From Tubulanus polymorphus (taxonomy: Eukaryota > Animalia > Nemertea): DNA of 64,000 nucleotides. The translations under genes were made by a program, and so were the position numbers. This document shows positions 11,063-57,637 of this stretch, one piece after another (position 1 is the first letter of the stretch; each line of letters begins with the position of its first letter). The stretch is taken from the NCBI RefSeq assembly GCF_964204645.1, contig NC_134026.1, positions 16,836,150 through 16,900,149 of the forward strand, written 5' to 3'. Below the pieces are notes generated by a model. That model ran no database searches. It had not been told where the DNA came from and was given only the letters and a program-made list of their open reading frames with translations.

Positions 11063-11139
11063 AAAAGGATGACGTTGGTCGAAGAAATGGAAGAGGATTC
11101 TAAAATGTTAATCAATTTTAATAAAAATATGTATAATAA

Positions 11140-12882: not shown

Positions 12883-12949
12883 ATTATAACACTGAAGGTC
12901 TTTATAATATAGATATCAAAAAATGTTGTATATATCTGTTTTAATATTG

Positions 12950-24058: not shown

Positions 24059-24074
24059 TTATATAGGTGAAAAA

Positions 24075-24827: not shown

Positions 24828-24844
24828 TTATTTTACATATTTTC

Positions 24845-25186: not shown

Positions 25187-25214
25187 TTATTATACAAATT
25201 TTTATTGAAATTTA

Positions 25215-28200: not shown

Positions 28201-29243
28201 TTAATTCTAACAGGATACTTATCTATCTTATAATTATTTTCAAATGGTTTATAATGAGTTAATCTAAAACTATGTGTAATATCTTCTGTTGGATGTAAAC
28301 AACTTATTGTAGCCCATAGAAAACATTTATTATCAAAATTTTGTATATTTATTACACCATTAGTTTTAAATGGTAGTTTAATATAACTTGTTCCATTTAT
28401 ACTATCATCTTTATAATATGATAAATTATTTTCATCAATTGGTTTTGATTTAGTTAACTTATTATATTTTGTGTTATAAACATGTAAAGTCATAAATATT
28501 ATTTCATCAAATATTAAACCTGATCCTTCAAAATATTTCTCTTCTATTTTACTTTTTATTTCATTATAACATTTATTTAATTTATCATCTATATGTTGTT
28601 TAGATATAATATGTTGTGAATGAGAATTTATATTATATATTGGTTTATCTTCAGATTTTATAAACTTTACTTTAACTGATATACTAATTTTTGGATATTC
28701 AACATCTGTAATTATTTTTATTATTTCTTTCATATTTTCTAAATGTTTTTTATTTTCTTCTAATGTTTTACCTTTATGAAATTTAAACTCGATAGCTGCT
28801 GGACCAATATCACTTTTAAATGCTTCGGTTATCTCTATATCTTTTTTATTATCTAATGAATTAATATAATTTCTTACATCTTCCATATATGGTCTTTTAT
28901 TGTTTAATTTATTTTTTATTCTTTTAATTGTTTTCTGTTTCTTATCGTTATCATTATCAAAATAATCTTCACCTATAATATCATTATTCTTATTTCTAAT
29001 ATGACTTATAGATTTTAAATGTTCTTTATAATATCTTTTATCACTGAATGATTGATTACATGTATCACATTTGTATGTTTCTTTTTCATCCTTTAATTCT
29101 TCTAATTCATTTTCTAATATATCATCTTCATATTCTAATTTCAATTTATTCTCTAAATGTGTTCTAGTTTTATTGTGTCTTGCTTTTTGAGACTTGTCTA
29201 TATCGATATTACATGTTGGGCAGTAGTATTTATTTGCTTCCAT
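25215..29243 (-). CDS. Protein-primed family B DNA polymerase (Zn fingers, terminal-protein/vOTU-like region, endonuclease VII-like insert); intein-free
   Basis: Exo YGDFES / FHNLSGYDAH / YLKSDV; Pol YIDANNLYGWAM, KLMNNAFYGK, YLDTDS, KLKG; DNKCF...HY; CYYC...RDHDHLNGKFRGAAHENCN. Confidence 0.97.
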   Translation of the reverse strand: MEANKYYCPTCNIDIDKSQKARHNKTRTHLENKLKLEYEDDILENELEELKDEKETYKCDTCNQSFSDKRYYKEHLKSISHIRNKNNDIIGEDYFDNDNDKKQKTIKRIKNKLNNKRPYMEDVRNYINSLDNKKDIEITEAFKSDIGPAAIEFKFHKGKTLEENKKHLENMKEIIKIITDVEYPKISISVKVKFIKSEDKPIYNINSHSQHIISKQHIDDKLNKCYNEIKSKIEEKYFEGSGLIFDEIIFMTLHVYNTKYNKLTKSKPIDENNLSYYKDDSINGTSYIKLPFKTNGVINIQNFDNKCFLWATISCLHPTEDITHSFRLTHYKPFENNYKIDKYPVRIKNIPKIERDNNLKINVFDLIKLPNTKGNNIKHYTLEPLYLSKDYDSNDVIDILYYENHYMWIKQIDLFFKSENDHHKIYLCRKCLHRFSNESTLLNHKQLCDNHDYCKLVLPNEKDKILEFKKYDYKNKVPFVIYGDFESLNKELTDQDRKEIYYKRKKLNSNESDFSDEPPKTNTIKKIHQSAAAFGLYIKSDYPELIESEYYHYRNENVINHFCDLLIEYEIRFNEKLNKNIEIIMTEEDKEVFEFTDKCYYCEKIFNYKDKKVRDHDHLNGKFRGAAHENCNLQAKKINFVPVIFHNLSGYDAHLFIKQLCYKIEEINNEIEILNSNKSKDKIPTYKFRMLAKTSENYISFQFGCLRFIDSYRFLNSSLDNLSKSLVDDELKILKEYYPNNDDFQLMRYKGAIPYSFYKNHNDFKITELLKEQFYDELKNEYVKDEVYNRTLNIWNHFEIKNHGQLVDLYLKSDVLLLTDIFERFRDVNLKYFNIDPCHCYSSPGLTWDCGLKFTNIKMDLLTNIDQLLLFEKSIRGGVSGVLGDRYFNVNDNPGYKLLYIDANNLYGWAMMEPQPYGVFEITEVLQIDKFDWKKRILDIADDSDTGYFFVVDLEYPENIKFKSRNLAYCPEHKTVKHEELSNYQKRIKPDNHIHTEKLMVTQEDKYNYVVHYRMLKFYLNQGMILKKVHRYISFNQSKWLEKYIDFNTTQRTEAKTDFEKDFFKLMNNAFYGKTCENIRNRNDIELVSNGKRIRHLQSYPKFIGNKIFDENLAAVKMRRTSMKFNKPIYVGASVLEISKLLMYQFYYNILQPHFGEKNIEILYLDTDSYILKIKSDNIKDDLKILNHHFDFSNYPKNHELFSNDNKKVPGKFKDELGGEEMIEFIGIRSKMYSYKTKEHEAKKLKGITKSVVEKNIHFKDYINCIFNEEVRKHKMKCLRSEDHEMYIEEIEKISLNPFDDKRYILDDGIHTVAYGCNLDEYIKFKREETKENEIMKRILTC

Positions 29244-29730
29244 TTTAATACTATATTTTTTATTAAAATTGATTTTAGAAGTTCAATGATTTAAATGTTA
29301 TTCATATATATGTGAATATTTTAAGAGTAATAGGGGTAATGGGCTTTCGTATCAAAGGTTTAATGATCGAGTTCATTAATAACAAATATTAAAAGTAATT
29401 AAAAAACTATAATATATTTTCATAACCGCGTGTATTTCGGTTGAATAATAGAATAATTATTATCATTTGAATATATTTGATTATTAAAATTTGTGTATTG
29501 TAATTAAATCAATTGGTCGTGGAGCGGAGCGATAGCGAAGCGGAGCGACCAATTGATTTAATACAATATGCTTTTTATATTATTGATATCTTATAATAAA
29601 TATTTAGTTTTGATATAAAATACACGCGGTTATGAAAATATATTATAGTTTTTTAATTACTTTTAATATTTTGTTTTTAATGGGCTCGACCTTTCGACCT
29701 CTGGTATGAAAGCCCATTACCCCTATTACT
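29139..29730 (-). repeat. Right TIR of element 1 (592 bp; hairpin 29326-29730)
   Basis: Inverted copy of 10325-10927. Confidence 0.95.
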
Positions 29731-33889: not shown

Positions 33890-34011
33890 ATTTAAAAAAA
33901 TAAATTAATAAAAATGATGAATAGCTAGAATCCGAAATGACTTATCTGGACAATTTAATTGCTCCGCATAGATAGACAAAAGTAGTGAGATATTCAATTA
34001 ATTAAAAAAAA

Positions 34012-34392
34012 TTATTTTTTTTGCTTTTTTTCTAAAATATTAATCCATTTTTTTAATGTCAATTTTGGAATTTCAGAAGTATTTTCATTTTTGATAGCAG
34101 TTGTTTCAGAATTATTAATATCATGAATTTTATTTGATTTCTTATACCAATTACACCCAATCAAAATGAATACAATTACAAATCCAACTGTAAAATATAG
34201 ACATTTATCAAATATTCTTTCATTAGAAGGAGTAGAAAGAACAATATTTTCACCATTTTTATTAACATTTTTATTACTTATTTTTTCTTTTACAGCTTTT
34301 TTATATTCTTGTGATTTAATTCCTAATTGCCGAGACCATTCAATTTGTTTCTGTGATCTCGGTTTTTTCTTCACTTCTTCCACCTTGTTCAT
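34012..34392 (-). CDS. Small basic TM protein (homolog of 14249-14644)
   Basis: RSQKQIEWSRQLG plus TM helix. Confidence 0.7.
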   Translation of the reverse strand: MNKVEEVKKKPRSQKQIEWSRQLGIKSQEYKKAVKEKISNKNVNKNGENIVLSTPSNERIFDKCLYFTVGFVIVFILIGCNWYKKSNKIHDINNSETTAIKNENTSEIPKLTLKKWINILEKKQKK

Positions 34393-34433
34393 TTATTATA
34401 GAAATATTTTTACTTTCAATATTTGAAAATGTT

Positions 34434-34931
34434 TTAACTAACAGTTGGTAATAATGTCATAAATCCACCTAATTGAAATGATAAATATCCAATCCATTTA
34501 TTTAATTCAGTCATAACTAAATAATCATTTTTTAAATCAGCATATAATCTATTTTCATCTTGAATTGGCAGCATATAATTACATAATTTACTATAACCTT
34601 TTACTACATTATCTGATATCGCGTCATTAATTCTAGCTGTTCTCGCGGTTTCATTAATCTTAAATAATCTAATAATTTCATCTGATTTCATTGTATCTAA
34701 TTCATTATAAGTTAAATTTTTACCGATAAAATTTTTACATTTTCCAGATGCTATTAATATTTCTAATTGATGTTTACAATAAAGATAATATTCATAATTA
34801 TTATTTGTCGTAACATTATTTAAAGCACCATCATCTGGAGTTAATTTTGTTTCTGTTATTCCTAAATCATCTAAAGTTTTTTCAATTGGAACATCACCAT
34901 TTTTAGATTTTATTTTCTTTTCACCTACCAT
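34434..34931 (-). CDS. Homolog of 13654-14256
   Basis: IEKTLDDLGI, YEYYLYCKHQLE, LKNDYLVMTEL. Confidence 0.75.
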   Translation of the reverse strand: MVGEKKIKSKNGDVPIEKTLDDLGITETKLTPDDGALNNVTTNNNYEYYLYCKHQLEILIASGKCKNFIGKNLTYNELDTMKSDEIIRLFKINETARTARINDAISDNVVKGYSKLCNYMLPIQDENRLYADLKNDYLVMTELNKWIGYLSFQLGGFMTLLPTVS

Positions 34932-34963
34932 TTATATAACAAAAAAATTAGTTGTGATGTTGC

Positions 34964-35235
34964 AACTAGAATTCAACTAGAATGTAACTAGAATTCAACT
35001 AGATTAACAAGCTAGTTGAAATATTGTTGTTTTTGTTTATTTCTAGTTAAATCTAGTTGATTTTTGTTCCAACTACCAATAACTAGAATTCAACTAGAAT
35101 GTAACTAGAATTAAACTAGATTAACAAGCTAGTTAAAATATTGTTAAATCTAGTTGATTTTTGTTCCAACTACCAATAACTAGAATTAAACTAGAATGTA
35201 ACTAGAATTCAACTAGATTAACAAGCTAGTTGAAT
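34964..35235. repeat. Three copies of a CTAG-rich ~55-bp repeat
   Basis: AACTAGAATTCAACTAGAATGTAACTAGAATTCAACTAGATTAACAAGCTAGTT at ~34964, ~35081 and ~35178. Confidence 0.85.
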
Positions 35236-35844
35236 TTAAATAAATTCATATTTAAATGGGTGTTGTAATCTAAATAGTAATTTTGATCTTTTAATATTTT
35301 TCAACTTATCCATATATTCATTATGTAAATCATGTGGAATAATATCATTTTCCTCAAGTGCATTTTTCATCGATTTTCTATCTTTATTGTAGAATAAAAC
35401 TAGAAATCTAATGTTTTCTCTAAAGTCTTTAACAATTGAATTATATTTTTGATTTAAAATCCAAGTTGTTATCCCAAAATGTCTGCCAGAAAAAGCTAAA
35501 TAGCATAACTCACTCTCTCTAACTTTTGAATCATGTAGATTAGCTCAATCATCTATAATGAATAATGTATTTGATCCTTTATAAATATCAATTGCTATTT
35601 TTATACAATTATCTAAATTTTCTTTTACTGTTTTAGGATCTAATATAATAAATTTATTATTTCTAGTAATATTTCTATCATAAGTTTGATTAAATTCATA
35701 TGTTGGACAAAATAATACTATATTATCAAAATAGTTTTTATAAACAGTTTCTAATAAATTTAATATAAAATAAGTTTTTCCACAATTTGTTACACCAGAA
35801 ATTAACATATTATGAGGCTCAAATATAAATAATTCCTTATTCAT
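35236..35844 (-). pseudogene. Packaging ATPase with in-frame TGA after Walker B
   Basis: GVTNCGKT, LFIIDD*; the frame continues to RLQHPFKYEFI. Confidence 0.9.
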
Positions 35845-36896
35845 TTATTTATTTTTAATTTTACTTGATAATATCCATTCATTGAATTTATCTGGCCATC
35901 CAACCCATTTTACTAAAGAATATTTCTTTCTTTTAATAGTTTTTGTTTTTAATACTTTTTCAATTTTATATTCTTGTTCTAGATTTTCAGTAGTTAAACT
36001 CAATTCTTCTTCATAAAAGTAGCCATCAACTTCTTCACCATCTAAATCTTCTAATTTATAGACATATGGTTTTGTTGTTATAACCTTTTTTATTTTATAT
36101 ATTTCTCTAGTAAAATTTCGATCGTATAGGTTCACTAAAATCATCTACAAGAAATGCTCCATATAAATTATTCCAAACAATTTCAGCATTTTCAGGTTTT
36201 CTAGCATCGATAGATTTCATTCCAATAGAAGAATGATAAGAATTATTATATCCTTCTATAAATTTTGGTAAAACATCAATTTGCTGTAAAATATTTCCAC
36301 ATTCTTGTTCTTAATGTTCTATTAAATCGTTCAACAACTGCTGCTTTTTTATCCAATTTTGTTGAAAAATATTTAATATTATGATTGTCTAAGAGTTCAT
36401 GAACAAGTGAATTATCAAACTCTTTTCCATCATCAAATTGTATTTTTTCTGGTTTTAGTTTATCATCCGAAAGAAATTTTCTTAAAACATTTGATGTTTG
36501 TACAGCATCTTTTCTATAAAGTGGGAAGCTCCATACATAACGACTAAAAATATCAATTATATTCAATAACCACCAATAATCATTATTATCTTTCTTAACA
36601 TTTTTCATAACAATTAAATCTCCTTGCCACTGTTGATCTACATAACTTACCATAGTTTTACGAGTTTTATATTTTCTAACAATTTTTTTATGTGTTGTGT
36701 ATGTTGGTTGTTCTAACATAAATTCATTTATATCTTTATATTTAACTAAATTTTGTGGGATTATCTTATCTAATTTAACTGGTTTTACTTGACGCCATAT
36801 ATTTTTAGTAGAAGAATAAGCAACCGAACTCTCAGGGTTGTAATATAAATTTCTTAAATATTGTTCTTTAGTATTATGAGTTTTTTTACCACCCAT
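35845..36896 (-). pseudogene. rve integrase with chromodomain, disrupted
   Basis: WQGDLI, QFDDGKEF, VVERFNRTL; stop at 36276; chromodomain in 35845-36144. Confidence 0.92.
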
Positions 36897-36926
36897 TTAT
36901 ATATCGTTAATTTTAACTTTATATTT

Positions 36927-38174
36927 CTAATATTGAATACTATCTAATTGTGAATTTACAATATTTAATTGTGCGTCAGATATAATATAAATGTGCATTT
37001 TAAAATTTAAGCTTCCTTTTTTCTTTTTCATGAATAATTGTATTCCATCTTTTGTATTGTGTAGTTTTTTCCCAGAACCATGTAATGAATTATCCTCTGT
37101 TGTTCTTAAATCTAACCATAATGCGTATTCATTGCCGGTATAATAATCCTTTTGATTAATATTACAATTTTCAAATGATTTTACTTTTTCATTCATAAAA
37201 TGTTTTCTAATTTCTGGCCATTGATCAATCATTCTCATTCCTTGACAAAATATTTTATTTGCTATTCCTTCGATGGTTATTTCTACTTTTGCTATTTCAG
37301 GATTATAATAATTATCAATCTTTATTGCGCCATTAGAATATGTTGCAATGGTAAAAAATATTAATATACCTTTAATAGATCTTCTTGGGAAGTTAATATT
37401 CTCATTAATTATTTCATCATTTGCATTAATAGTTACAGTTTAAAATTTATCAATATAATCATATAATAATGAAAATCCTTGATTGTATTGAGTTTGAATT
37501 GTGCTAGCAATATTTTCATTAGTTACTGTGTCATATTCTAAACATATATTCGATAATTTATAACCCATATCTTTAACAACGCTAGATAAAACAATTTCAT
37601 TTACAGGAGCAAATGTTATCTCAAATATAATATCTTCTTGAATTACATATTTATATAAAGGTGCATTATTATTTATCAATTCAAAGTCTAATGGAATTTT
37701 ATATTTGCTTCCATAAATCTTTTTAATCAAATTATCTGCGGCACTAGTTACTACTGCATTATTGGCTTCAGATCTTAATTCATTATGGTTTTCTGATTGG
37801 ATGCCTTGAAATATCATATTATTTCTATTTTCTTTAGTTAACCATAAATCTTTATAATGCATAAATAAATTATAATCATCTAATGAGAAAACTGTTTCTG
37901 GACCAATCTTTATAGTTAATTTTTTAATCAAATATCTCCCAACATAATCAACAACATAATTGTTATCATGGCCAGTTACTTTTATATCAGCTTATAAATA
38001 AATACTATTTGGAACATAAAAAGTATTTTGTGTTAATCGAGGAATTCTGACATATAAAGTTTCATCGGGATTAATATTTGAAGGATTATGAGTAATTATA
38101 TGATGTGATCTTTCTGCTTTAATAGCATTAGATATTCTAGAAATCTTAGAAGGACTTATATAACTCCCACTCAT
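36927..38174 (-). pseudogene. Major capsid protein, frameshifted
   Basis: Three ORF pieces highly similar to 18168-19415. Confidence 0.9.
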
Positions 38175-38194
38175 TTATTTAACAAAAAAATTAA

Positions 38195-39649
38195 TTATTC
38201 ATTTTTTACTATTTTTTCTTGATATCTTTTTGATATCATATTCACTAACCCAAAAATAATAGCACTTACAACTGTAATTAAAAATAAAATAATATGTTCA
38301 GCAGCAAAGTTAATAATGTTTCCTGCAGATTTCAATATAAAACCAACAATTGATGCAATAATTCCTGGTAAAGCTGCAGCAGATTTTTTAGATAGTTCCC
38401 ATAAATATTTTGCTAATTTCTTTAAACCATCCTTAACTTTATCTTGTATAGAATTATTATCATTCGGGGGTTTATCCGGTTTATTGGGTGTATGCGTAGA
38501 TTTCAAAGAATTTGATATTGCTAAACCAATTGTTGTAAATAACATAGTTACAGCTGTTAGAATTGAAAGAATTGTTATTCCTTCTAATTTAAATAATAAC
38601 TTTATTCTATCTTTCAATGATATTTCAGAATTTGGTTTTATCAACAAATCTTTAAAAATAACTTTTAATCTATTAATATTATAATCATATGATTTTAATA
38701 ATAATTTAATTTCTTCTTTTGGTAATTCTATGTTATATTCTAAATCATCTTTTTCTTTTTCTAAATACGCATTTCTTTTTTTAAATTCGATTTCTTCAAT
38801 AACTTTATTATCTCTATCTAATTTTAGTTGTTCCGATTCTTTTCTTGATTTAAATAATTCATCTTCTAAAGTTGTAATTTTTAAATCTCTTATACTTTTA
38901 TCATGCGCAATTTTATCAGATGCATGTCTTATACTTTCAATTTCTCTAATTGCTTTATCAGAAAATATATTTAAATCTTCTAATTCTTGATCTGTTGCAT
39001 CAATTAATCCATTCGGTAAAAGTTTTTCAATTAGAACTTTATTTGATTTAAGTTTACTAGTTTTGGAAGTTATATTCTGTTCAGAAGTTGTTTCTGTTTT
39101 TTATTTCTTTTTGATTATTTCAAATAATTCATTAATTCTTTGTTTAAATACGTCTATATCATTATCAGTTAATTCTTGTTTTATAACATCAGTTATTACA
39201 TTACTATTACTAATTCTTTTAATTCTATCTGGATCTAATTTTCTCAAAGTTAATTCTGTTATTATTTTTTTTAAATAAGTGATATCAATATAATAATCAT
39301 CTTTCAAACGATAATAACATTTACCATTATCTAAAAATTTTAATTGATCTGCTTAAAGTCTAACGTCTTCATCATTTATGTTAAGTTTAGATTTTTCAAT
39401 TAAATCTTCTAATTTAGGTATTTTGTTTAAATTATCTAAATCTTTTTTTACTAAATCTGGGTCTAAATTTTCAGGATTTAATTGTGATTCTGCATTTTTA
39501 ATATAATCAGGCGTATTTAAATTAGAATTACGTCCTGGCTCATTACCGTCATTAAAACTTGTTTCACTAATATCAGGTTGTTGTTCATCAGTTATGCCAG
39601 GTTCATCAAAAGGATCCATTCCAATATCTTCTCCACCTTCTACATCCAT
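38195..39649 (-). pseudogene. Homolog of the 568-aa membrane-helix protein, fragmented
   Basis: MDVEGGED start and near-identical C-terminal ~140 aa. Confidence 0.85.
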
Positions 39650-39665
39650 TTATATAATAAAAAAA

Positions 39666-41063
39666 TTAAAATTTAAAATATAATATTCCTCCTATAACAA
39701 TTCCTATACAAGTTAAAGCTAATTTAGTATTTTCATGTAATTTATTATCATTATCAGTTTTAATTATATCATGTTGAATATTATCAGTTTTAATATTTTC
39801 TGATGTTTTATAATCCGGTTTAGAATCACTTTTTAATTTAATATTCTTAGTTTTAGTTTCTGTTGATTGAATGTGTTTTTTATTTTTTTCACCTTCCATT
39901 AATTTTGGAGCAGTAATAATCTTTTTTTTTATATCATTCAATCCAAATGAATTATTTATTGTTGCAGTTTTAATTAAATTATTGTAACCAATTATATTTC
40001 CCATCTTTAATACTAAATCAATAGAAATAATTAATAGATTAGGGCCTATACAATAATTTAATCTAATATGTGATTTATCTAAATAATTTTGATATCTTAC
40101 AATGTTTTCTGGAATAGATCTATTTTTATCATTATGAATTGAATCTTCAAATAATACTTTGAATTGTTTCTGTGTATCAAATGATGTATTTAAATTTCCA
40201 ATTATTGGGGATCTTGTTTCAACCTGTGATCCTAGAATACATATCAAATAAGTTCTAATAGATTGATTTATTCTTTGTATACCAGCTTTAGTAAAACCTT
40301 CAATATTTTCTAAAATAAAATTAACCCAACCATCATTATTTTGTTGTTGTTTGATATAAATATAATATTTTGGTATTTCATTCCATTTAAACGTTTTTGA
40401 GTTAGTATTTTTTATTTCTTTTCTATATTTTTTAGTATAAGGGACAGCAAAACCTCCGATTGGAAATGGTGAATTATTCATTGCATCCAAAGCTTTCTCT
40501 ACTTTAGATAAATCTCCCCCTGTAATTGTTCCCATCTTTGATCTAAAATCAGAATTATTTATATCTATATTAAATTCATAACATATTTTATAATACTTTG
40601 ATAAATTAATGTTATTATCTAATTCTTTAAAATATCTAGACCCTGGTAAAGGACACTCTAATTCATTTAATATTAATCTTATTTGAAAGTATGTATGAAA
40701 TCTAAAGAGTGATAATATTAATGGTAAACTTGGTTTATTTAAATGATCATTCCAACTTATTCCGCGCCCTGTTGTTGCGCAATAAACAGCAAAATTTAAT
40801 TGGTTTTGCCGGAATTGCATATTTGATTTTAACATCCATAATTTTGCTTTACTTAATTCTTTTTCAAAATTAATTTCATAAACATTGAATATATTTTCCA
40901 TCTTTACATGAAAATTATTACTTTCAGTGACATAAATATATAAATCAATTAATGAATCTAAAGCTTCATTTCTATATGTAATATCTTTATTAAAATCTAT
41001 TGCTGGAATATTATATTTAATTGATTTATTATATTGGAAAGCTTTTGGAAAACTATCTTCCAT
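39666..41063 (-). CDS. Homolog of 21264-22565
   Basis: 465-aa open frame with high similarity outside a variable central segment. Confidence 0.8.
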   Translation of the reverse strand: MEDSFPKAFQYNKSIKYNIPAIDFNKDITYRNEALDSLIDLYIYVTESNNFHVKMENIFNVYEINFEKELSKAKLWMLKSNMQFRQNQLNFAVYCATTGRGISWNDHLNKPSLPLILSLFRFHTYFQIRLILNELECPLPGSRYFKELDNNINLSKYYKICYEFNIDINNSDFRSKMGTITGGDLSKVEKALDAMNNSPFPIGGFAVPYTKKYRKEIKNTNSKTFKWNEIPKYYIYIKQQQNNDGWVNFILENIEGFTKAGIQRINQSIRTYLICILGSQVETRSPIIGNLNTSFDTQKQFKVLFEDSIHNDKNRSIPENIVRYQNYLDKSHIRLNYCIGPNLLIISIDLVLKMGNIIGYNNLIKTATINNSFGLNDIKKKIITAPKLMEGEKNKKHIQSTETKTKNIKLKSDSKPDYKTSENIKTDNIQHDIIKTDNDNKLHENTKLALTCIGIVIGGILYFKF

Positions 41064-41079
41064 TTATATAATTAAAAAA

Positions 41080-42193
41080 TTAATAATTTATTAATTCTTT
41101 TAATAATTTATCTTGTTCTTCAACTGTTATATGACCATTTAAACTTATTATATAATCTAGCGTATTCTTTAATTTATTAATTTCTTTTATATTAGTTTTA
41201 ATTTTTTCTTTATTACTTTTTATATTTAATTTTGAACTTATACCAGTTAAAACACTTGAACTTAATCCTAATACACCAATTGATATAGCTAAAGGTGTTA
41301 ATGGACTGAATATTGCTAGAAATGTTATTACAGAACTAATTGTAACCGAACCACTTATAATCAAATAATATATAATTTTACTTTTTAAATATCTTTTCTT
41401 TTTTATCTTTAAGTCACTTTCAAATTCTAATATTTGTTTTTCTAAATATATTTTTCATTTAGTTTTATTCATATCATGAGGAATAATATCAATATTATCA
41501 TCCATTTATTTAGCAAAAAAATTACTAATTAGTAAACTTATAAGCAACAAATATAACAATAACTGTTCCACCTAAAATCCAAATTATTTCATATTTCTGT
41601 TGTTCTTTACTTGGTGTATAATAATCTGATAATTTAGGTTTGTATAGATGTAATTTTTCTTTATTGGTTACCGCGTTATATAAACTCATTGCATCATCAA
41701 CTGATTGAAAATCTCTATGTGAAATCTTCTGATCATATAATTCCTTGTTAATATAATCCATATAGTTTTGTCTCTTTTCTCTATATTCTTCTGCTGCTTT
41801 ATTGTATTTCTCTAATGCTAAGTTATGTATTTTTTTGTTCTGTTAATGAACCATTTTTATCAATATGTTTAAATAAATAACCGCCACCAGTAAATGCTAA
41901 AGCGTTAACAATTGCTGATCCTATAATAGTTACAGCAGCAGAAGCCATTTATTTAGTAAAATAATTATGCATATATATGGGAGGAATATATTTTTGTTTT
42001 TCCAAATAATCAATAGTTAAATTAGATAAAGTAACTGCTAACGTTAATTTTAAAATATCATTTATATCAAATCTATCAACATAAACACTTCCCATTTTGA
42101 ATAATTTTTTAATACCATTGAATAACCAACAGTTCCAACTGATAGTAATGCGCCATTATATAATCCAGTTATTATCCACTTATTATCACTCAT
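41080..42193 (-). pseudogene. Three small membrane-protein genes (homologs of 22582-23710), disrupted
   Basis: Starts at 41505, 41948 and 42193; near-identical DNA with a premature TGA and indels. Confidence 0.8.
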
Positions 42194-43532
42194 TTATTAA
42201 TTAAAAAAAATTACTATCTTCGATATATTTAGTTAACTTATTTATGATTAATTCAACATTTATTTCATTACTAGTTTCATTTGTATATATTTCAATTATT
42301 ATTTTTCTAATATCATCGATGATAAAATCTTCATCTAATTCATAAAATCTTAAAGATTCTCTAATTAAATTAGTAATCTTTTCTACATTTAACCGAATAT
42401 GCGCTTAAACTATCACTAGGGAATGGTAAAAACACCGTAGCTTCGTTCTTCTCGATGTTATTTCCCCCAAAACCTGGCGCATTAGTACTTTGCGCGTAGT
42501 AGCACATGCGCGTATAGCACATGTGGGTCAACATATCCATGTTGTGAGTTGACCCCTAGGTGGCACTCTTTAAAAAAAACGGAATGTAGCGAACTGATTT
42601 CGGGTGAAATCTTTGCTCGCATCCCTGAACGACATTCTATCCAGAAAGGCAGAAACCCGTTATCGCTGCTTGCAGCTATATTTAGGGTTTTCTGTTATTT
42701 CACAGAAAACCCTATTGATATCCGCGTGATTATTATTATTATTATTTTCTTCCACACTATTTTTACCAAAAGAACATAGGCTTTGTTACCTTACCGCTGT
42801 TTCATATACAATCCATATAATATCGTTCAGCTCACTGAGATCTACAAATAGCCCGCGTGTTTTTTCACGAATCATCGTTACAAAAGCGCTGTCGGGCCGT
42901 AAACATCGAAAATTTAGCCCCATTCAATGGGGCGACATGTTTTTCGAGTCGTCATCCCGAAATCAACCCGCAGGCCGACTGTCACTTCGATTATCAATTC
43001 AAGTATAAATGAACTAATTTATTGCCGCAGACTTAACATTCAGTCGTGGTCTTCAAACAGTGATTTTAACAATAGCCCATTTTCCTCATCAAATCATATT
43101 ACCGATACACTGGAAATTTACTACATTAGATTTTAAAAGCACTGTCGAGCCGTAAACATCGACGAATCGACGTGTGTTACTACATCGTCGTTCCGGGGAT
43201 CAGCTGCGAGTTTCTCCTCATCATGAACCTACGTGAAGTGAGCCTGTTATTCCAGCCTCGTATTCAGATGTAGTGTGTACACACTGTACAGCTGCCTGTA
43301 GATACTGGTTGACATGAAATGTATAACTTAGCATGACGGAGCGATGATAACTAACGTTAACGTTAGTATATAGCATCGGATACTGATACTCAAATTTCTC
43401 TGAAACAAAAACTCCAGGTTTCGTAAAAACTGAGTATATTACTGAATAGGCTCGATTGTTCAAGTAGATATATAAAGTAAATGTCTGTGCATCGATTTGT
43501 TCAGGTATTATTTCAACTCACGATTGCATCAT

Positions 43533-44586
43533 TCCGCGACAATTCATTATTTTGTTTTATCGCCCGCGACAATTCAATATTTTGGTTTTATCGCCCGCGA
43601 TAATTCATTATTTTGGTTTTATCGCCCGCGACAATTCAATATTTTGTTTTTATCGCCCGCGACAATTCATTATTTTGGTTTTGTCTCCCGAGACCATTCA
43701 TTATTTTGGTTTTATCGCCCGCATCAATTCATTATTTTGGTTTTGTCGCCCGCGACAATTCATTATTTTGATTTTGTCGCCCGCGACGATTCAATATCTT
43801 GTTTTTGTCGTCCGAGACAATTCATTATTTTGGTTTTATCGCCCGCGACAATTCATTAGTTTGGTTTTATCGCCCGCGACAATTCATTAGATTGGTTTTG
43901 TCGCCCGCGACAATTCATTATTTTTGTTTTATCGCCCACGACAATTCATTATTTTGGTTTTATATTTTGTTTTTATCGCCCGCGTCAATTTTTTTTTGGT
44001 TTTGTCGCCCGCGACAATTCAATATTTTGGTTTTGTCGCCCACGACAATTCATTATTTTTGTTTTATCGCCCACGACAATTCATTATTTTGGTTTTATAT
44101 TTTGTTTTTATCGCCCGCGTCAATTTTTTTTTGGTTTTGTCGCCCGCGACAATTCAATATTTTGGTTTTGTCGCCCACGACAATTCATTATTTTGGTTTT
44201 ATCGCCCGCAACAATTCAATATTATGTTTTATCGCCCGCGACAATTCATTATTTTGGTTTTGTCGCCCGAGACCATTCATTATTTTGGTTTTATCGCCCG
44301 CGACAATTCATTATTTTGGTTTTGTCGCCCGCGACAATTCATTATTTTGATTTTGTCGCCCGCGACGATTCAATATTTTGTTTTTGTCGCCCGAGACGAT
44401 TCATTATTTTGGTTTTATCGCCCGCGACGATTCAATATTTTTGTTTTATCGCCCGCGACGATTCATTAGTTTGGTTTTATCGCCCGCGACAATTCATTAG
44501 TTTGGTTTTGTCGCCCGCGACAATTCATTAGTTTGGTTTTGTCGCCCGCGACAATTCATTAGTTTGGTTTTGTCGCCTGCGACAAT
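43533..44586. repeat. 26-bp minisatellite, continuing at 45846-46120
   Basis: (TCGCCCGCGACAATTCATTATTTTGGTTTT[A/G])-type units, ~31-bp period by count, tens of copies. Confidence 0.9.
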
Positions 44587-44593
44587 TATTTTT

Positions 44594-45847
44594 CAGTCCA
44601 CTTGGGACTTAAGTCCCAGCGGGCTATTGCGTTCACTTTTCGTCCGTCCGTCCGTCCATAGACGGAATCCAGTTATTTTGGGAAGTTTTGAAGACGCTTC
44701 AAGGTAATGTCTTGATATTTGGTTTATACATGTATCTACCCTAGACACATCGTCAGCCCAAAAACTGGCCCTGTCAGATTCAAGATGGCCGACTGGCAGC
44801 CATTGTTGTTTGCCAAAATCGGAACTTTTTAAACATTTTCGAAGTTTTCGTGGGAAATTTTGAAGACGCTTTGATCAATTACCTTGATCATTCGTTTATA
44901 TTTGAATCTACCAAAGGCCCATCAGCATAAGAAAATTGGGTCGATCTGACTCAAGATGGCCGTCCTATGACCTTTTTAGTGCCCAAAAATGTCAATTTTG
45001 GCCAGAATTCTAGGTCACGTAGCTTCCTACTGGTTTGCCATTTCTCATTGCAATTGCTGATGGGTATTCTTCAGAGAGGGATGTTTTATACCTGGGACAG
45101 GTATCTTTGATCAGCCAATTATGACGCAATTGGCGGCCATCTTGGTGTCATCAGTACTCATTCGTAGGTGGGAAAAAGTTTTTCCACATTAAATTGATAC
45201 CTAAGCATATTGTGTTACTATATTCAATTGGAAAGTTGTAGCCCATAACGTGTTCTATGATTTTGGTGAGTTTCAAGGTCATTGGTTTTTGTATGTGGCC
45301 ATCAGGGGGCGTTGAATAATACAATAACTTAGAATTGCTATATTTGTACCAAGGCATATTTTGTTACCATGATCAATTGCAAAGTTGTAGTTCATGACAT
45401 CGTCATTGATTGTGGTGAGTTTTTAAGGACATTAGTTATTCCATATAGTCACCAGGGGGCGTTGAATAGTAGAATGGCTTAGTATTTCCTCATTAGATTG
45501 GTACCTAGGCATATTTTGTTACTATGATCAATTGCAAAGTTGTATTTCATGACATGAACTACGATTGGGGTGAGTTTTAAGGTCATTGGGTTTTGCATAT
45601 GGTCACCAGGGGGCGTTGAATAGTAGAATAACTTAGTATTTCCATATTAAATTGGTAACGAGGCATATTTTGTTATCACAATCAATTACAAAATCATAGC
45701 TGCTCACATGTTCTATGATTGTGGTGGGTTTCAAGGTCATTGGTTTTTGTATATGGTCACTAGAGGGCGTTATGTATTGAAATTGTTAGATTGTTGAGCA
45801 TTTGAAACAACTTCCCAAGTGAGCATGGTGTCCCTGGACCCCTAGTT
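44594..45847. mobile_element. HINE/pearl-like family A element, reverse orientation, inserted in the minisatellite
   Basis: Hairpin plus (CCGT)n at left, GTGTCCCTGGACCCCTAGTTT at right, internal core repeats; inverse of 55845-57588 with fewer units. Confidence 0.8.
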
Positions 45848-46698
45848 TGGTTTTGTCGCCCGCGACAATTCATTATTTTGGTTTTGTCGCACGCAACAAT
45901 TCAATATTTTGTTTTTGTCGTCCGCGACAATTCATCATTTTGGTTTTATCGCCCGCGACAATTCAATATTTTGGTTTTATCGCCCCCGACAATTCATTAT
46001 TTTGGTTTTTATCGCCCGCGACAATTCATTATTTTTGTTTTGTCGCCCGTGACAATTCAATATTTTGGTTTTGTTACCCGCGACAATTCATAATTTTGGT
46101 TTTGTCACCCGTGGTTTTGTCAGAACATTAAGTTTTTTGGTCGAACAGTGTATTAAGGTCGTTTTGGAAATTTACTCGGTCTGGTATATTTTGGATTACT
46201 GTGTATGTCATTTGTCAGGACATTAAACAGAAGACGACTTAGGATACTACCTTGCGTGACTCCACTAGCTAGACCGTCTCATTCCAAGATGAGGCGTTCC
46301 GTTGATTTCGGTTACAAGTTTCCGTTCAGAGATAACTGCTGAGCCATTTGGACGACCTATCATTGATACTGTTTCCTAATAGCCTGTTTAGTAATGGCTG
46401 ATGTTGAGCCTTATCAAATGCTTTGTTGAAATCCACCGTTGAACAGGATTCTAAGACTGTGCAGAAAACCCGTTATCGCTGCTTTGCAGCTATATTTAAA
46501 TTAGCAATCTTTTCTACATTAAAAGTTTCTTTATCTATTGTTTTTTCATACTTAAATGTTGTTTCATTAGAAAATGCAATATTTTTGATTTGTGTAATTA
46601 CATCATTAATGTTAAATTTCATTTGTTTCTCACGTTTAAAATCAAATCCAAAACATATACTCGGTCCAACTGTTATATTCATTTATATAATGAAAAAA

Positions 46699-47485
46699 TT
46701 AATCTTTACATCTTACAACTAATTCATAAATTACAGGAAAGTTATTCAAATCAATTAAATATCCATTATGATTTCTTATTTCTAATTTAAAATTATTGAG
46801 ATGTGGAATACAAGGTTTAATATCACATTCAGCTAAATTATAATTTATTTGCGTTCCAAATTGTTTAACATTCTTTAATGGTAAAATATTTAGTATACTA
46901 GAATTACAAATTGTATCTTTAGTTGCTTCAAATGTTTTTGTTGGGTCAATTAAATTGCAATAAATATAAAAATGTGTAAAAGGTATTATATTTGATATAC
47001 CGTATGTATTTCCGAAAATAAAATTATCTGAAAGAATTCCTAACAGTTTAGCAATAGGTTTTTTTACCATGTAAGCATGTTTTCTTACCATCAATGAATC
47101 AGGACCAATATTTTCATCATCAAACTTTACTTTAATTTTATTAGAGCTCTCACTTTTTATGAATTTAATATTAAATTTAGAATCACTACCTAACATAATC
47201 CGAGCTTTTCTATTAATTTCTTGCGCTAATGTTTCTAAATTATATAATCCTGGTGTAATCATAAGTTGATAAGCTTTTTTATCACTACGTCTTTCAGCAA
47301 TAAAAATGCTTCTATGTTCATAAGTTTTATCTGATGTATTATAAAATGAGTTACATAAACTTATATTTACTAATTTTAAATCAACACAATTCTTAAATTC
47401 TCTATCTAATTGAACTAGTAAATTATGTGATTTATAATTTGTAAGTTTTCTAGAATCAACAAATATTCTGTATTCTTTTAATTCT
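46699..47485 (-). pseudogene. Minor capsid (penton) homolog, 5' end disrupted
   Basis: PGLYN, THFYIYCNLI, KLEIRNHNGYLIDLN; upstream DNA still encodes KEYRIFVDSRK but lacks the ATG. Confidence 0.8.
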
Positions 47486-47557
47486 AGAATTATTATAACA
47501 TAAAAAAATTACCGCTCATCACTAAAAATTAATTTTAATAAAATTTTTCCTAAATAA

Positions 47558-48901
47558 ATGGATGAGAAGATAGCATGCGAAATTTGTGGTGAACTTCTAA
47601 GAAAAAGTAATATGGCTCGACATATGAAAAAACATGATGAAAATTATAAACCCCCTAAAATAAACTGTCCAAAATGTAATAAATTATTCTCAAGAAATTA
47701 TGTTAAAACACATTCAGAGAAGTGTAAAATTAATGGCGCAACGGCTAATGTTGATAGTAACGAAAGTAATAGTAATTCTGTTGAAGTTGAACCTGAAGTT
47801 ATTTGGAAAAGACCTTTCTTATTCTATGATAAGGATAATATAAAAGATCATTTCTGTGAGCCTTGTCGAATAAAATATAGCCCTGAAAATATAGAAGATT
47901 GGGAGAATCATCAATTTCGTAAAGCACATATAGATAAAATTTCTAATAAATTTGAAGCAGAATTCAATGAAAGAAAAAATAATATATTAGAAAAAATAAA
48001 ATATGAGAAAACGTTACCAGATAATAAAGAAACACTTGAAAAGTTGGAAAAACAATATAATGAATTAACAAGAAAAACATATTATTGTAAATATTGTAAA
48101 TTGATTATTACAACAAGTAATTCAAATCTACATAATAGAACAATAAAACATAAAGAAAACGTAAGAAAATACCAGGAGCTTAATGAAGATCTATTACCAA
48201 TAAATTATAAACAAAAATGCCCACAATGTAGTTATGCGACCTTAAGGCAAGAAGGTACTGTGTTATTTTGTAATGAATGTGGATGGCAAAAGAATTTATG
48301 GGGTGAAGAAAAAACTAGAGATTTTCTCATAGATCCAAAATTAAATTATCTAGATGAAATTTTTAAAATATTTTCTATAGAAGATCATACACCAGAATAT
48401 ATGCAATGGCTTGAAAAAATGAAAATGATAGATAATAAAAATGGTGAAATAACTAAAAAAGATATTATAAAAACAATTATTCCATCAACATTTAACACAA
48501 AACAAAAGAAAATGTATTTATATTTATTATTTAACGATTATTATGAAAAACCTAAATTAACAGAAGAAGATATGGAAAATATTAAAAAAATATTTAAACA
48601 AATATTAATGTATCATTTGGAAAATAGAATAACAGATTCAATAAATTATGAATTCTTTTTAAATAAGATTGTAAATTATTTAAACATAGATATTCCATTA
48701 ATAATTCCATTAATAATTCCATTTGATGAATTAACAAACAAAAAGAAACAAAGAGAGCGAGATGAAATGTGGTACAAGATAGAACTTTATTTAAATGAGA
48801 AAAATGAAATGGAAGAACCTAAACAAATTATACAAGAACAATTAAATGAAAATGAAGAAGCCAATAGTGATTTCGAGTTTGATGATATTGATCCATTTTA
48901 A
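47558..48901 (+). CDS. Multi-zinc-finger protein with VLTF3 (poxvirus A2-like late transcription factor)-like C-terminal domain
   Basis: Four CxxC...H fingers, a CPQC...CNECG ribbon, then SINYEFFLNKIV...KKKQRERDEMWYKI; 447-aa intact ORF. Confidence 0.65.
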   Translation: MDEKIACEICGELLRKSNMARHMKKHDENYKPPKINCPKCNKLFSRNYVKTHSEKCKINGATANVDSNESNSNSVEVEPEVIWKRPFLFYDKDNIKDHFCEPCRIKYSPENIEDWENHQFRKAHIDKISNKFEAEFNERKNNILEKIKYEKTLPDNKETLEKLEKQYNELTRKTYYCKYCKLIITTSNSNLHNRTIKHKENVRKYQELNEDLLPINYKQKCPQCSYATLRQEGTVLFCNECGWQKNLWGEEKTRDFLIDPKLNYLDEIFKIFSIEDHTPEYMQWLEKMKMIDNKNGEITKKDIIKTIIPSTFNTKQKKMYLYLLFNDYYEKPKLTEEDMENIKKIFKQILMYHLENRITDSINYEFFLNKIVNYLNIDIPLIIPLIIPFDELTNKKKQRERDEMWYKIELYLNEKNEMEEPKQIIQEQLNENEEANSDFEFDDIDPF

Positions 48902-51900
48902 TAACCATAAGGTAATGTTTTTATACCATCATCTGAAATATGTCTTTTATCGTCAAATGGATTCAAACTAGTTTTTTCAACTTCATTAATGTACATCTCG
49001 TGATCTTCTGATCTTAAACAATTCATTTTATGTTTCATTACAATTGAGTTATATAAACACTTTATATAATCTTGAAATTCTATATGTTTATCAACCACAT
49101 GTTTTGTTATTCCTTTTAACTTTTTAGCTTCATGATCTTTTGTTCTATAACTATACATTTTACTTCTTATCCCAACAAATTCAGTCATTTCATCACCCCC
49201 AAATTCATCTTTAAACTTACCAGGAATCTTTTTATTATCATTGCTAAATAGTTCATGATCTTTGGGATAATTGCTAAAATCAAAATGATGTTTTAATGTT
49301 TTTAAGTCTTTTGTTATGTCATTTGTCTTGATTTTTAGTATGTAGGCGTCCGTTTTTTTGGATTAATGGGAACCCAGAATTGAATGTTCCATCATCTGTT
49401 GATAAATCATAAACATAGTCAGTTGGGTTATATATTTCAAATAAATCTTTAACTTCTTCAGTTAAATCTTTTTCTACATGCCTTAAATTAAAACAATTTG
49501 GTTTAGATTTAATTAATTCTATATTCATATTAAATCCTAATGAACTGCATAATATATTCAATCCTGATATAGCAACTTTTCCTTTCTGTGCAAAGGTTAT
49601 CTTTTTATCCTTTGTATATTTTTTAGTTCCATCTGCGGCATAGAATCCAATGAAGAACCATTTTCTTAAATTATTTTTTGCATTTAATACATAATCTGGA
49701 ACTATATTTTCTTTAGTTGAAGTATTACTTTTCACTATTGCATGAATATAGAATTCATCATTATATTTTATAGCAAAATCTTTAGGATTATTCACAAGTA
49801 TTCTATAAACTGCTGATGATTTCATAACATCCATAATTTTAAATGTTTTATTTGGATAAACTTCTTCACAGAATTTCTTTATTCTTTCTAATAATTTTAA
49901 GTCTTGATTGCATAAATACCAACAATATTTATTACCCCAAACATAATTATACACACCTGCTGAACCATCTCCCATGAAAAATCCTTTGATAAAATATTCT
50001 TTTTCTTCTAATGTTTTGGGTTCTATATTATAAATATTATCAATTATTTCATCAAATGACATATGATTCATTCTTTGGAAAAATCTTTTATGTAATAATT
50101 CATCTCCAATTTTTATATCAGTTGGTTTTATTTCATCGCCTTTTCGTTTAATTAAGCTATGATCTTCTGTAACATCTACAAATCCTAATTTAGTTCTAAC
50201 TCTATAGATTTTCTTATTTGTTTTATGCCTAATAATATTCTTTAATTTTTTCCATCCATTTCTTGTCCAAACATCCATTAATTCATTTATTTGTATTAAT
50301 TCTTTTTCACCATATGAAATATAACATTCATTTTGTTTTGGAATTATTTCTGAAATTCTTCTTATCAATATTTTATCATTACATTTTAATAATATTGGGG
50401 TGTCAGCTGTTACAGAGTCAAAATATAATATTTCAATATGCTTTTCCCCAAAAAGTGGTTGTAAAACATTATAATAAAAATCATACATTAATAATTTTGA
50501 TACTTCTAAAACAGTTGAACCAATGAATATAGGTTTATTAAATTTCATTGACGTTCTTTTTAATTTAACTGCTGTTAAATAATCTTCAAATCTTTTATTT
50601 CCTAAATGTCTAGGACTTGATTGTAAATGTCTTAATCTTTCAGAATTATTTACTAATTCAATATCATTTCTATTTCTAATATTTTCACATGTTTTTCCAT
50701 AAAAACTATTGTTCATTAATTTAAAAAAATCTTTTTCGAAATCTGTTTTTGATATGGTTCTCTGTTGAGTATTAAAATCTATATATTTTTCTAACCACTT
50801 CGATTGATTAAATTCAATATATCTATGTACTTTCTTTAATTTCATTCCTTGTTTTAGATAAAATTTTAACATTCTATAATGAACAATATAATTGTATTTA
50901 TTATTTTGAGTAAGTATTAATTTTTCTGTAAAAACATGATCTTTCGGTTTTATTTTCTTCTGGTATTCACTTAAATAACTATCATCTACAGTTAAATGTT
51001 CTGGGCAATAAGGTAAGTTTCTTGGTTTAAACTTTATATTTTCAGGATATTCTAAATCAACTACAAAGAAATAACCAATTGGTGCTCCATCTTTTAAACT
51101 CGCAATTGCGCTTTCCCAATCAGTTTTATCATCATTTTCAACTTCTGTTAATATAACATTTTTATATGGTTGAGGTTGCATCATTGCCCAACCATATAAA
51201 TTATTGGCGTCAATATATAATAATTTATATTCATCATTTGCTTTAAAATATCTATCTCCAATAACACCACTAATTCCACCTCTAATTAATTTTTCAAATA
51301 ATAAAAGCATGTCTGGTTCTTTTAATAAATCTAATTCTACATTTGTATATTTTAAACCACATTGCAAGGTTAAACCAGGACTTGAATAACAATAACAAGG
51401 ATCAACATTAAAATGATTCAAATTAACTTCTCTAAATTTTTCAAATATGTCAGCCAATATCATAACATCTGATTTTAAATATAAATCAACTAATTCACCA
51501 TGATTTTTCATCTTAAAATGGTTCCAAATATTTAATGTTCTATTAAACACTTCGTCTTTCACATACTCCTCTTTTAATTGATCATAAAATTGATCTTTTA
51601 ATAATTCTGTTACATTAAAATCATTGTGTGTTTTATAAAATGAATAAGGAATTGCGCCTTTATATCTCAATAATTTAAAATCTTGTTCATTTGGATAATA
51701 ATATCGAGTTATAACAAAATCATTATCAACTAAACTTTTTGATAAATTATCTAATGAACTTGCTAGAAATCTATAAGAATATAAAAATCTGATGCAACCA
51801 AATTGAAATGAAATATAATTTTCAGATGTTTTAGCTAATAGTTTAAAATCATATTTTCTTACATTTACACCATTCATAGCATTATATTCTTCTATTTCTT

Positions 51901-52640
51901 GATTAATTGCGCCCAATTTTCCCGATAATTGTTTTATAAATAGATGGGTATCATAGCCTGACAAATTATGAAATAATATTAGTACGAAATTAACTTTCTT
52001 AGCTTGTAAATTGCAATCTTCATGAGCAGCTCCACGATATTTTGAATTTAAATGATCATGATCTCTAACTTTTTTATCAAATGAATAAAAACGTTTTTCA
52101 CAATAAAAACAATGAGTTGCATAATTAAAATCAATTTCATCTTCTTTTGTCATAACTATTCTTTTATTTTTGTTTAATAATTTTGCAAAATCACTTTCTA
52201 ATTCAATCATTTTATCACAAAAATCATTAACTACATTTTCACCTCTAAAAGAAATTTATTGACTTTCATATAATTCAGGATAATTTGATTTTATATAAAT
52301 TCCATAAGCAGCAGCTCTTTGATGAACTTTTTTAATTGTATTTATAATTGGCGGGTCTTGTATTGTGTCTTCATTTAATTCATTTCCTTTATCCATTGAT
52401 TTTAATAATAATATTTTTGTTATATATTTCTTTTCTATCTTGATCAGTTAATTCTTTATTCAACGATTCAAAATCCCCATAAATTACAAATGGAACAATA
52501 TTTTTAAATTTATGATTAGTAAATTTCAATTTATAATCTTTTTCTGTTGGCATTATTAATTTGCAAAAATCTTTATTATCACATAATTCTTTATGTTTTA
52601 GTAACGCATTCTCAGTTCTAAATTTAGATAAACATTTTCT
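48898..52640 (-). pseudogene. Protein-primed PolB of element 2, intein-containing, 5'-truncated and frameshifted
   Basis: YIDANNLYGWAM, KLMNNSFYGK, YFD-[intein]-TDAYILKIK; C-terminal piece 48898-49188. Confidence 0.95.
49352..50416 (-). mobile_element. Intein (355 aa) with LAGLIDADG homing endonuclease in PolB motif C
   Basis: Block A SVTADTPILL, B VDVTEDHSL, C FIKGFFMGDGS, E FFIGFYAADGT, F YVYDLST, G ...QKN; absent from element 1 YLDTDS. Confidence 0.95.
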
Positions 52641-53658
52641 TCAAAAATGTGGTATTCAAAGAAAAAAAAAAAACGTCTTTCAGTAAATTATTGCCATGGC
52701 TTTCGCCGCGGAATAATTGAAACATTATTTTGAGCCATTTTCAGCTGTTTCTAATGTTTTACGTGAGCGGAATGACAATTTGAAGTTACTATGAAAATGA
52801 GATGAGTCAGTGCTATTTTTTCGTACTCCTATTTTCGATCCATTTTACTAGCATTGGCATGACGTCAACCAATGCTATAAATCATTACATGCAGTAAAAA
52901 CAAGAAACGAAATTCTTAATATGGACTTTCCTAAATTTACTGAGTGTATGTTTATAATCAGCATCAAAATTAAACATTGGTAGTCAAGATTAGAGGTTAT
53001 AAGCAGAACAAATAAAAAATAGTGAAAACTACTGGACGTATCGGGCCCACTCCGCGCGGTAATTACGCGAAGCAGCAGAACACAAACATGGCCACTCTCT
53101 CAATTTTCAATGATAGAAATCGTGTGTGCATTTCAATTATTTCGGCTGTTAGGGTTTTAAGGCACAATATAAGTTGATGATGTGATATGGCGATGTTAAT
53201 TAATGATAATTCCGCAGTGAAGCTAGTCACGAACGGTGCCGATTGAGTGTACAGCTGCCAAAAACACTGAAATGTGCGTAGTTGCGTAACTATTTGCAGT
53301 GAATTGCAGACGAAACATGAAGCCTTAACAGCCGTTTAAAAAAAAATTATATCAATCGCAATTGTAATATGAAAATGAGATAGAACCTAAGTTAAAATTC
53401 TGGCCATTTCTAATATGTTATTACTAATTTTTAGTCAGTGCGGAACGTTTAGTTTTCCAACAATAATGAGGGGTGGTAGGTAGTCATGCAATTCAAGTCA
53501 TCATTTATTACACGTTACTTCCGTGTTGTTGAAAATCTCGCGAGTCCTGGACCAAATCCCAATGAACAATGTGATCTGTGTGCTGGCCACAAATGCACAC
53601 AGATCACACTTGTCACCCTGATATAATTTGCATATTTCATAATCATATAGATCTACAA

Positions 53659-57588: not shown

Positions 57589-57637
57589 AATACTTTTTTA
57601 TTGTGGGTTTTTGTCCACTATCTAGGGAAATATTTAA

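Follow-up and report, generated by a model that had tools for sequence, protein, structure and literature searches.

The 64,000-nucleotide stretch of DNA analysed here (the window) carries two Maverick elements, and raises the question of what has lodged in the DNA polymerase gene of the second one and how it persists. The host gene encodes a protein-primed family B DNA polymerase (pPolB), as a preliminary description of the locus had proposed and as a profile match (PF03175, 6.9e-17) and the gene content of the element bear out. Its motif C is interrupted between the first Asp and the Thr (D|TD, the bar marking the insertion point), at a site which we take to be the one labelled pol-c, while the polymerase of element 1 reads uninterrupted at the matching place (ILYLD|TDSYILKIK). 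In element 2 the polymerase frame continues directly from ILYFD into 355 stop-free codons (49352-50416, minus strand), which open with SVTADTP, close with PLIQKN and contain the motifs VTEDHSL, GFFMGDGS, GFYAADGT and YVYDLSTDDGTFNSG, all as first described. Judged by its sequence, the insert is a full-length canonical (class 1) LAGLIDADG intein for which splicing and cutting are predicted. Inteins of this class are known, but none was found described from such a host protein or such an element. The copy in the window is a decayed, dead relic, and the interest of the locus lies in the living family that it reveals.

A full-length LAGLIDADG intein in motif C

Profiles of three families match the insert, TIGR01445 (6.5e-7) and Pfam LAGLIDADG_3 (1.1e-6) above their family cut-offs and Pfam Intein_splicing (2e-7) below its own, and a search of protein clusters returned 294 homologues at E<=0.001. 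Because of these matches and homologues, the identity of the insert as an intein is well beyond chance. A structure predicted from a 40-row alignment (predicted local distance difference test, pLDDT, 88.6; predicted template modelling score, pTM, 0.90) adopts, as modelled, a Hint fold, with LAGLIDADG helices at residues 136-150 and 248-262. In a Foldseek comparison the top solved structures matching the model were full endonuclease-bearing inteins (E 3e-18 to 4e-13), namely TliVMA (3e-18), PhoVMA, PI-PkoII, PI-PfuI and PI-SceI, with I-DmoI also matched, and the best viral fold matches (BFVD) were giant-virus family B DNA polymerases (PolBs). Both the assignment as a full LAGLIDADG intein and the expected Hint fold are thus upheld. 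The insert does not have the layout of the Hog-Hint proteins: it lies internally and includes a LAGLIDADG domain, whereas Hog-Hint domains are C-terminal, are accompanied by a sterol-recognition region and have no endonuclease.

The residues expected to carry out splicing and cutting are conserved. Thr83, His86 and Asp337 are invariant in the 40-row alignment, and Ser1, the block B Thr and His, the block F Asp, the terminal Asn and both LAGLIDADG acidic residues are present in all nine aligned pPolB inteins. The last two residues vary among 203 relatives between KN (101) and HN (85), and the penultimate residue is His in five of the nine aligned pPolB inteins.

Related inteins in other protein-primed polymerases

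Among the best 120 of the 294 homologues, seven clusters (P0005, P0006, P0007, P0008, P0009, P0012 and P0013) combine an unbroken pPolB with the same intein at the same site, with P0005 at 63% identity; the other matches in this set are RNA-primed PolBs and topoisomerase II. A second search, started from P0005, gave no further carriers among its best 120 of 1232 matches. The list of carriers is a lower bound, and together with the window family the intein occurs in at least eight pPolB clusters. All 15 database pPolB carriers examined have Thr+1 directly after the intein, without a change of frame; the intein measures 337-355 aa, and no endonuclease-free mini-intein occurs among the carriers. 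Across the pPolB families the inteins are 42-77% identical.

Filled and empty copies coexist in three element families. The P0006 cluster has 136 members, and of the 15 listed, seven are filled, five are empty across the site and three are fragments or were not fetched. These 15 lie on contigs of 57-1018 kb, which suggests that they are integrated. The seven filled members retain an unbroken frame of 1537-1539 aa, and their exteins are 0.6% apart. In the P0009 cluster, the filled P0142 and the empty P0145 are identical at 743 of 746 positions outside the intein. The intein is nevertheless rare overall among pPolBs: it is absent from all of 119 proteins closely related to the element 1 polymerase (P0005 was the sole carrier among 120 rows found with an intein-free region as query) and from 70 further cluster members. 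A scan of viral, metagenome and prokaryote contigs yielded 207 intein loci, the best 41% identical over the full length, and none of the 207 contained a pPolB-like gene; phage records gave two weak intein matches. As a separate observation, topoisomerase II proteins (P0010 and P0102-P0124) carry related inteins at D|TD-like sites, which form one clade, with several inteins in P0010.

Possible signals of homing at the target site

The P0006 family allows filled and empty copies to be compared around the insertion site, at the protein level and within this one family, with seven filled rows and seven empty ones, of which one belongs to a sister cluster. Between the two kinds of copy, 43% of positions differ in the ten residues that precede the site and 40% in the ten that follow it, compared with 2% over residues 300-1000, and the divergence fades over the next 40 residues. 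The filled copies are identical to each other around the site. Among the empty copies the mutual difference reaches 25% immediately upstream of it against a background of 3%, a diversity greater than in all 48 control windows, and in one empty variant Cys replaces the Thr at the site. No such peak is present in seven of eight clusters without known carriers. At the sequence level, this divergence is the pattern that co-conversion of flanks together with selection for uncuttable sites would predict. Among 127 intein-free pPolBs examined (P0254-P0372), 28 have DCD in place of DTD in motif C; a link to escape from the endonuclease is a candidate only.

Filled and empty copies within one species

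Of the sequence words sampled, 57-62% were present in four runs of one study, all of a single species, and raw reads of the same species from another study (about 12% of a run) cover the intein at a depth of 117-261 reads and the flanks at up to 623; one of these two studies may be the source of the window itself. At the N junction 246 reads continue into the intein, another 67 bypass it and 126 have loose ends at that point, so that the intein would be present in roughly half of the copies of the Maverick family. At nine positions where the reads differ almost uniformly from the window, the window's own letter is seen in no more than 1-10 of 186-399 reads, and if these letters mark one copy, the family would comprise from tens to more than 100 copies. 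Four indel rows at the C junction (18/97, 7/97, 14/112 and 13/107 reads) imply that this junction differs among copies.

These reads bear on the status of the locus. A contaminated or chimeric contig was rejected as a candidate, both being unlikely, as reads of two studies on one species cover the intein and cross both junctions. Taken together, the possibilities that the host is not an animal but a protist, alga or fungus, or that the locus is a contaminant or a chimera with giant-virus DNA, are on the whole unlikely, if worth keeping in view. They draw on the fact that no gene within the window fixes the taxon and on the published occurrence of viral PolB inteins in nuclear scaffolds from algae and from a labyrinthulomycete (PMC10710043). 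A chimera is opposed not only by the reads but also by the similar guanine-plus-cytosine (GC) content of intein and element (0.247 vs 0.239) and by the same intein in other pPolBs. Against a non-animal host speak, weakly, the repeat-rich flanks with reverse transcriptases and a piggyBac-like piece and the classical integrase-bearing Maverick, none of which is exclusive to animals. We infer that the host is quite probably an animal.

Origin and history of the intein

In a FastTree phylogeny of 203 inteins, from which seven near-copies and segments of at least 480 aa were left out, the ten pPolB inteins form one group (support 100) within the motif C inteins of RNA-primed PolBs, and an IQ-TREE analysis of 53 chosen rows recovers the pPolB inteins as one clade (100/99). 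The RNA-primed PolBs with neighbouring motif C inteins are mostly those of giant viruses. A group of inteins ending in FNxG(F/T/S)PL, which includes ChoanoV1 and proteins matched at 99-100% on giant-virus metagenome-assembled genome (GVMAG) contigs, is sister to the pPolB inteins at 92 in FastTree and at less than 80 in IQ-TREE. The weakness of this link in the second, better tree, and the inclusion in the group of four shorter PolBs that are not giant-virus-like, weaken the case for this group as the source, for which reason a giant-virus RNA-primed PolB is only the likely donor on these trees. Mimivirus itself was set aside as donor, not being the nearest relative in either tree. The short PolBs P0016-P0018 and P0156 (~1200 aa), unlike those of giant viruses, have inteins that share the C-terminal motif of the Maverick clade.

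A polymerase tree was built from 53 rows (8 carriers and 45 empty, a subsample of the matches), using N-extein columns only because the window open reading frame (ORF) has no C-terminal columns, and leaving out P0008 because it is very distant. In this tree the carriers are scattered, seven changes are needed, and a single carrier clade is rejected (approximately unbiased test, p-AU 4e-70). Pairs with similar polymerases also have similar inteins (r 0.92 over 21 pairs, exact Mantel p 0.002), which indicates a long residence of the intein in pPolB lineages. P0008 shares 42-49% identity with the other carriers in the intein and 20-26% in the polymerase; since its intein is far closer than its polymerase, at least one move between distant pPolB lineages is implied. 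The earlier proposal of a crossing from a giant-virus RNA-primed PolB into a pPolB, followed by entry into a germline, therefore keeps its giant-virus kinship, but a clade present in at least eight pPolB clusters and diverged along with their polymerases is no one-off arrival, and an animal germline is likely only.

Probable persistence by splicing and homing

The insert probably survives as a selfish gene, which by its sequence features would splice out of the polymerase and home into intein-free Mavericks. Along the lines of the general splicing scheme (PMC7765530), an acyl shift at Ser1 would be aided by Thr83 and His86, the extein Thr+1 would attack, and cyclisation of Asn355 would follow, restoring the DTD motif. 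Another Maverick with an empty motif C site, whether already integrated or newly arriving, would be cut there by the endonuclease, and an intein-bearing copy would then serve as the template for repair; this would convert the site and carry short flanks along, favouring empty copies with altered sites. The history would begin with a single ancient transfer out of an RNA-primed PolB, which most likely belonged to a giant virus. Long residence would have followed, in which the intein was lost and regained repeatedly and passed at least once from one pPolB lineage to a distant one.

Several observations weigh against this reading. The window copy is frameshifted at the intein/C-extein junction, so that Thr+1 lies out of the intein frame: where the preliminary description had read a continuous QKN|TDAYILKIK, the intein frame extends ten codons past the junction to a stop at 49319 and the C-extein lies in another frame. 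The integrase, capsid-like and accessory genes of element 2 also have frameshifts or stops. The element 2 polymerase has a second break near 52400, with nothing that matches residues 1-441 of the element 1 polymerase. Given the junction frameshift and the other breaks of the gene, the window copy is unable to yield a spliced polymerase as it stands. The junction break may be a true mutation or may reflect misassembly of a short run of bases; programmed frameshifting at this place was set aside, as the relatives read straight through and the element has further breaks. Two helper residues are replaced, the penultimate His (common in canonical inteins, though not universal) by Lys354 and the block F His by Gly, replacements that the Mimivirus intein shares. 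A divergence peak at the site is likewise present in one control cluster, which has three rows. Among the variable places inside the intein in the reads, 23 of the 33 best supported fall at third codon positions (p 2e-5), a bias counted as a sign of selection, yet these 33 are drawn from several hundred variable places and 258 further rows lie outside the count. Co-divergence and patchy presence are also compatible with one old gain and many losses, and the nesting of P0008 is not forced (p-AU 0.087), so that its move may have run in either direction.

That the intein still splices but no longer homes, having entered pPolBs once in an ancestor, descended vertically and been lost repeatedly through recombination with intein-free elements, is unlikely. 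The agreement between intein and polymerase identities is what such a history would give, the closely similar filled P0006 members fit one recent expansion, and counts of changes on a tree cannot separate gain from loss. It is opposed by the retention of both LAGLIDADG acidic residues in 9/9 inteins that have diverged to 42-77% identity across families, by the want of any mini-intein among the carriers, by the divergence peak centred on the insertion site, and by P0008, which requires a sideways move. It is very improbable that the insert is inert baggage, without splicing and with a dead polymerase, on Mavericks copied in trans by intein-free ones, for while the broken window copy, the two absent helper histidines and the intein-free relatives in the same species suit this idea, the seven unbroken P0006 frames with nearly identical exteins, the splicing residues invariant across deep divergence and the third-position bias within the species oppose it.

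A splicing and homing intein is thus the preferred reading for the insert. The wider claim, of an active homing intein clade in animal germlines that parasitises Mavericks, having passed from a giant-virus PolB to pPolBs, spreading within a single nucleus through dozens of dispersed Maverick copies by cutting empty ones and driving escape variants at motif C, hangs evenly in the balance.

Relation to known inteins and significance

The closest described parallel in position is the intein of the Mimivirus PolB (R322, residues 1053-1403; PMC549080), which occupies the same site after the first Asp of motif C and has a similar length of ~350 aa. The two inteins share Ser1, the terminal Asn, the KN end, two LAGLIDADG motifs and, the frameshift of the window copy aside, Thr+1, and they are 38% identical (E 4e-58). 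The kinship first suggested to a Mimivirus-type intein is supported by this identity and by the giant-virus PolBs among the best folds, but the intein of Acanthamoeba mimivirus is not the nearest relative. The host proteins also differ, that of Mimivirus and other giant viruses being an RNA-primed PolB and that described here the protein-primed polymerase of an integrating 19-kb element, with an intein clade of its own. The yeast VMA1 intein (PI-SceI) and the archaeal PI-PkoII and PI-PfuI have the same Hint and LAGLIDADG architecture but reside in single-copy cellular genes, whereas the target here is a dispersed multi-copy element. VMA1-type inteins, with homing in cycles of loss and regain, serve as the model. 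The Hedgehog Hog-Hint domain of animals shares the Hint fold, but has no endonuclease and does not join the halves of a host protein (PMC7765530, PMC5784728).

In published surveys, the inteins linked to eukaryotes come from fungi, algae, protists and giant viruses, and animals have Hog-Hint domains only (PMC5784728, PMC7765530). An insect iridovirus carries an intein (PMC549080), so that inteins are known from animal-infecting viruses. Viral-like DNA polymerase inteins have been described on nuclear scaffolds of Klebsormidium, Tetrabaena and Hondaea, together with inteins of Anaeramoeba (PMC10710043). These cases share with the present one the residence of virus-derived inteins in eukaryotic nuclear DNA, and differ from it in the carrier, which here is a Maverick present in many copies, some filled and some empty, within a single species; the main text of that paper has no mention of animals, metazoa, polintons or mavericks. 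Polinton pPolBs with HNH and VSR nuclease inserts are on record (bioRxiv 2023.08.22.554363; PMC11071308). Those inserts are nuclease domains fused away from motif C, in contrast to the complete Hint domain at motif C in the window. The main text of the former contains neither 'intein' nor 'LAGLIDADG'. The latter suggests that pPolB nuclease inserts derive from intein invasions, with no Hint domain described in the text examined. No intein in a pPolB or Maverick is shown in the portions consulted of PMC12220804, PMC13768754 and PMC5718144. The suspected novelty is in line with this literature search, in which no catalogued intein of a pPolB or of a Maverick/Polinton was found, subscription papers, InBase, Repbase and supplements lying outside its coverage.

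A full intein in a multi-copy Maverick represents a route by which inteins may enter animal-type genomes, and turns the reason for their absence from animals into something that can be put to the test. It also indicates that a homing endonuclease can cross from RNA-primed to protein-primed polymerases through their common DTD motif; for such a crossing, a giant virus and a Maverick-type virus must have shared a cell. Single families contain filled, empty and apparently resistant copies, in which homing among dispersed repeats could be studied under natural conditions. They may also supply LAGLIDADG nucleases and inteins suited to the eukaryotic nucleus. If the wider claim is true, classical inteins would here be known for the first time from the nuclear DNA of animals, and would act there as a natural gene drive borne by an intein.

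The two Maverick elements and their surroundings

Coordinates of the features are collected in Table 1. Element 1 ends in inverted repeats of ~610 bp that are 97.7% alike, with AG...CT termini, and is flanked by a 6-bp target duplication (GATTTA). For element 2 no pair of terminal inverted repeats and no 6-bp duplication were found; its polymerase end is cut off at ~52650, and ~4 kb of other repeats interrupt it at 42400-46500. It contains homologues of most of the element 1 genes, and its gene order is that of element 1, in large blocks. Both elements match the rve integrase profile, and that of element 1 carries a chromodomain. The Pox_A32 match in element 1 has an 83% identical copy in element 2. 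The capsid-like gene, a candidate for the double jelly-roll major capsid protein of Mavericks, is without a Pfam match and has look-alikes in the Atlas at 0.97-0.98, in some of whose clusters 10-24% of the members belong to capsid families. No Pfam protease match was found among the scanned window ORFs that could denote a maturation protease, no search having been aimed at proteases. Over 506 columns the N-extein of element 2 and the polymerase of element 1 share 74% identity, and an HNH-type insert is common to the polymerases of both elements.

Table 1. Coordinates of the intein, its host gene and the two Maverick elements in the window.
Feature	Position	Strand	Basis
Intein, 355 aa: Hint splicing domain with inserted two-motif LAGLIDADG endonuclease	49352..50416	-	motifs, profile matches, predicted fold
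Block A, Ser1 (SVTADTPI)	50393..50416	-	alignment
Block B, Thr83 and His86	50147..50182	-	alignment
First LAGLIDADG motif, acidic Asp150 retained	49961..49990	-	alignment
Second LAGLIDADG motif, acidic Asp262 retained	49625..49654	-	alignment
Blocks F and G: Asp337, penultimate Lys354, terminal Asn355	49352..49420	-	translation, alignment
Intein/C-extein junction, frameshifted; length variable among reads of other copies	49345..49361	-	translation, reads
N-extein: pPolB exonuclease and palm, with HNH (Endonuclease VII-like) insert	50417..52255	-	profiles, tree alignment
C-extein of pPolB, in a different frame from the intein	48898..49353	-	sequence comparison
Additional upstream polymerase piece past the second break; gene cut off above	52389..52640	-	sequence comparison
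Maverick element 2 (carrier), decayed: integrase, ATPase, capsid-like and accessory genes	33900..52650		homology to element 1
Maverick element 1: integrase, A32 ATPase, capsid-like gene	10325..29730		repeats, profiles
pPolB of element 1, intact, intein-free; empty motif C site at ~25745	25215..29282	-	sequence comparison

Both Mavericks have a GC content of 24%, and the flanks one of 37-39%. The flanks are rich in repeats, with a copia-type reverse transcriptase, a second reverse transcriptase that is presumably DIRS-like, judging from its layout, and a piece of a piggyBac-like transposase; they hold mobile elements only, and no host marker gene was found in the window. Rfam and tRNA scans of the window gave no matches, and a 433-aa gene had no match in the Atlas.

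Element 1 appears young and complete, as seen in its closely similar ends, clean target duplication and unbroken polymerase. Its ends are internally palindromic, and a palindromic repeat lies at 16372-16961. Also in element 1, a 222-aa gene (11140-11808) has Cys pairs, looks HNH-like by eye without a Pfam match and is possibly a free-standing nuclease. A 447-aa zinc-finger gene in element 2 (47558-48901), convergent with the polymerase, is not matched by a gene at the corresponding position of element 1. The left edge of element 2 holds a 680-bp stretch (33481-34155) that is an inverted, 86% alike copy of 8230-8885, which lies to the left of element 1 and is probably the remnant of a third element. 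A tandem repeat with units of 31 bp and 154 bp breaks up element 2 at 42400-46500 and recurs at 55800-57600, 31700-32100 and 1-303. The last part of the window (61500-64000) holds a broken reverse transcriptase in overlapping frames, with an RNase H-like part.

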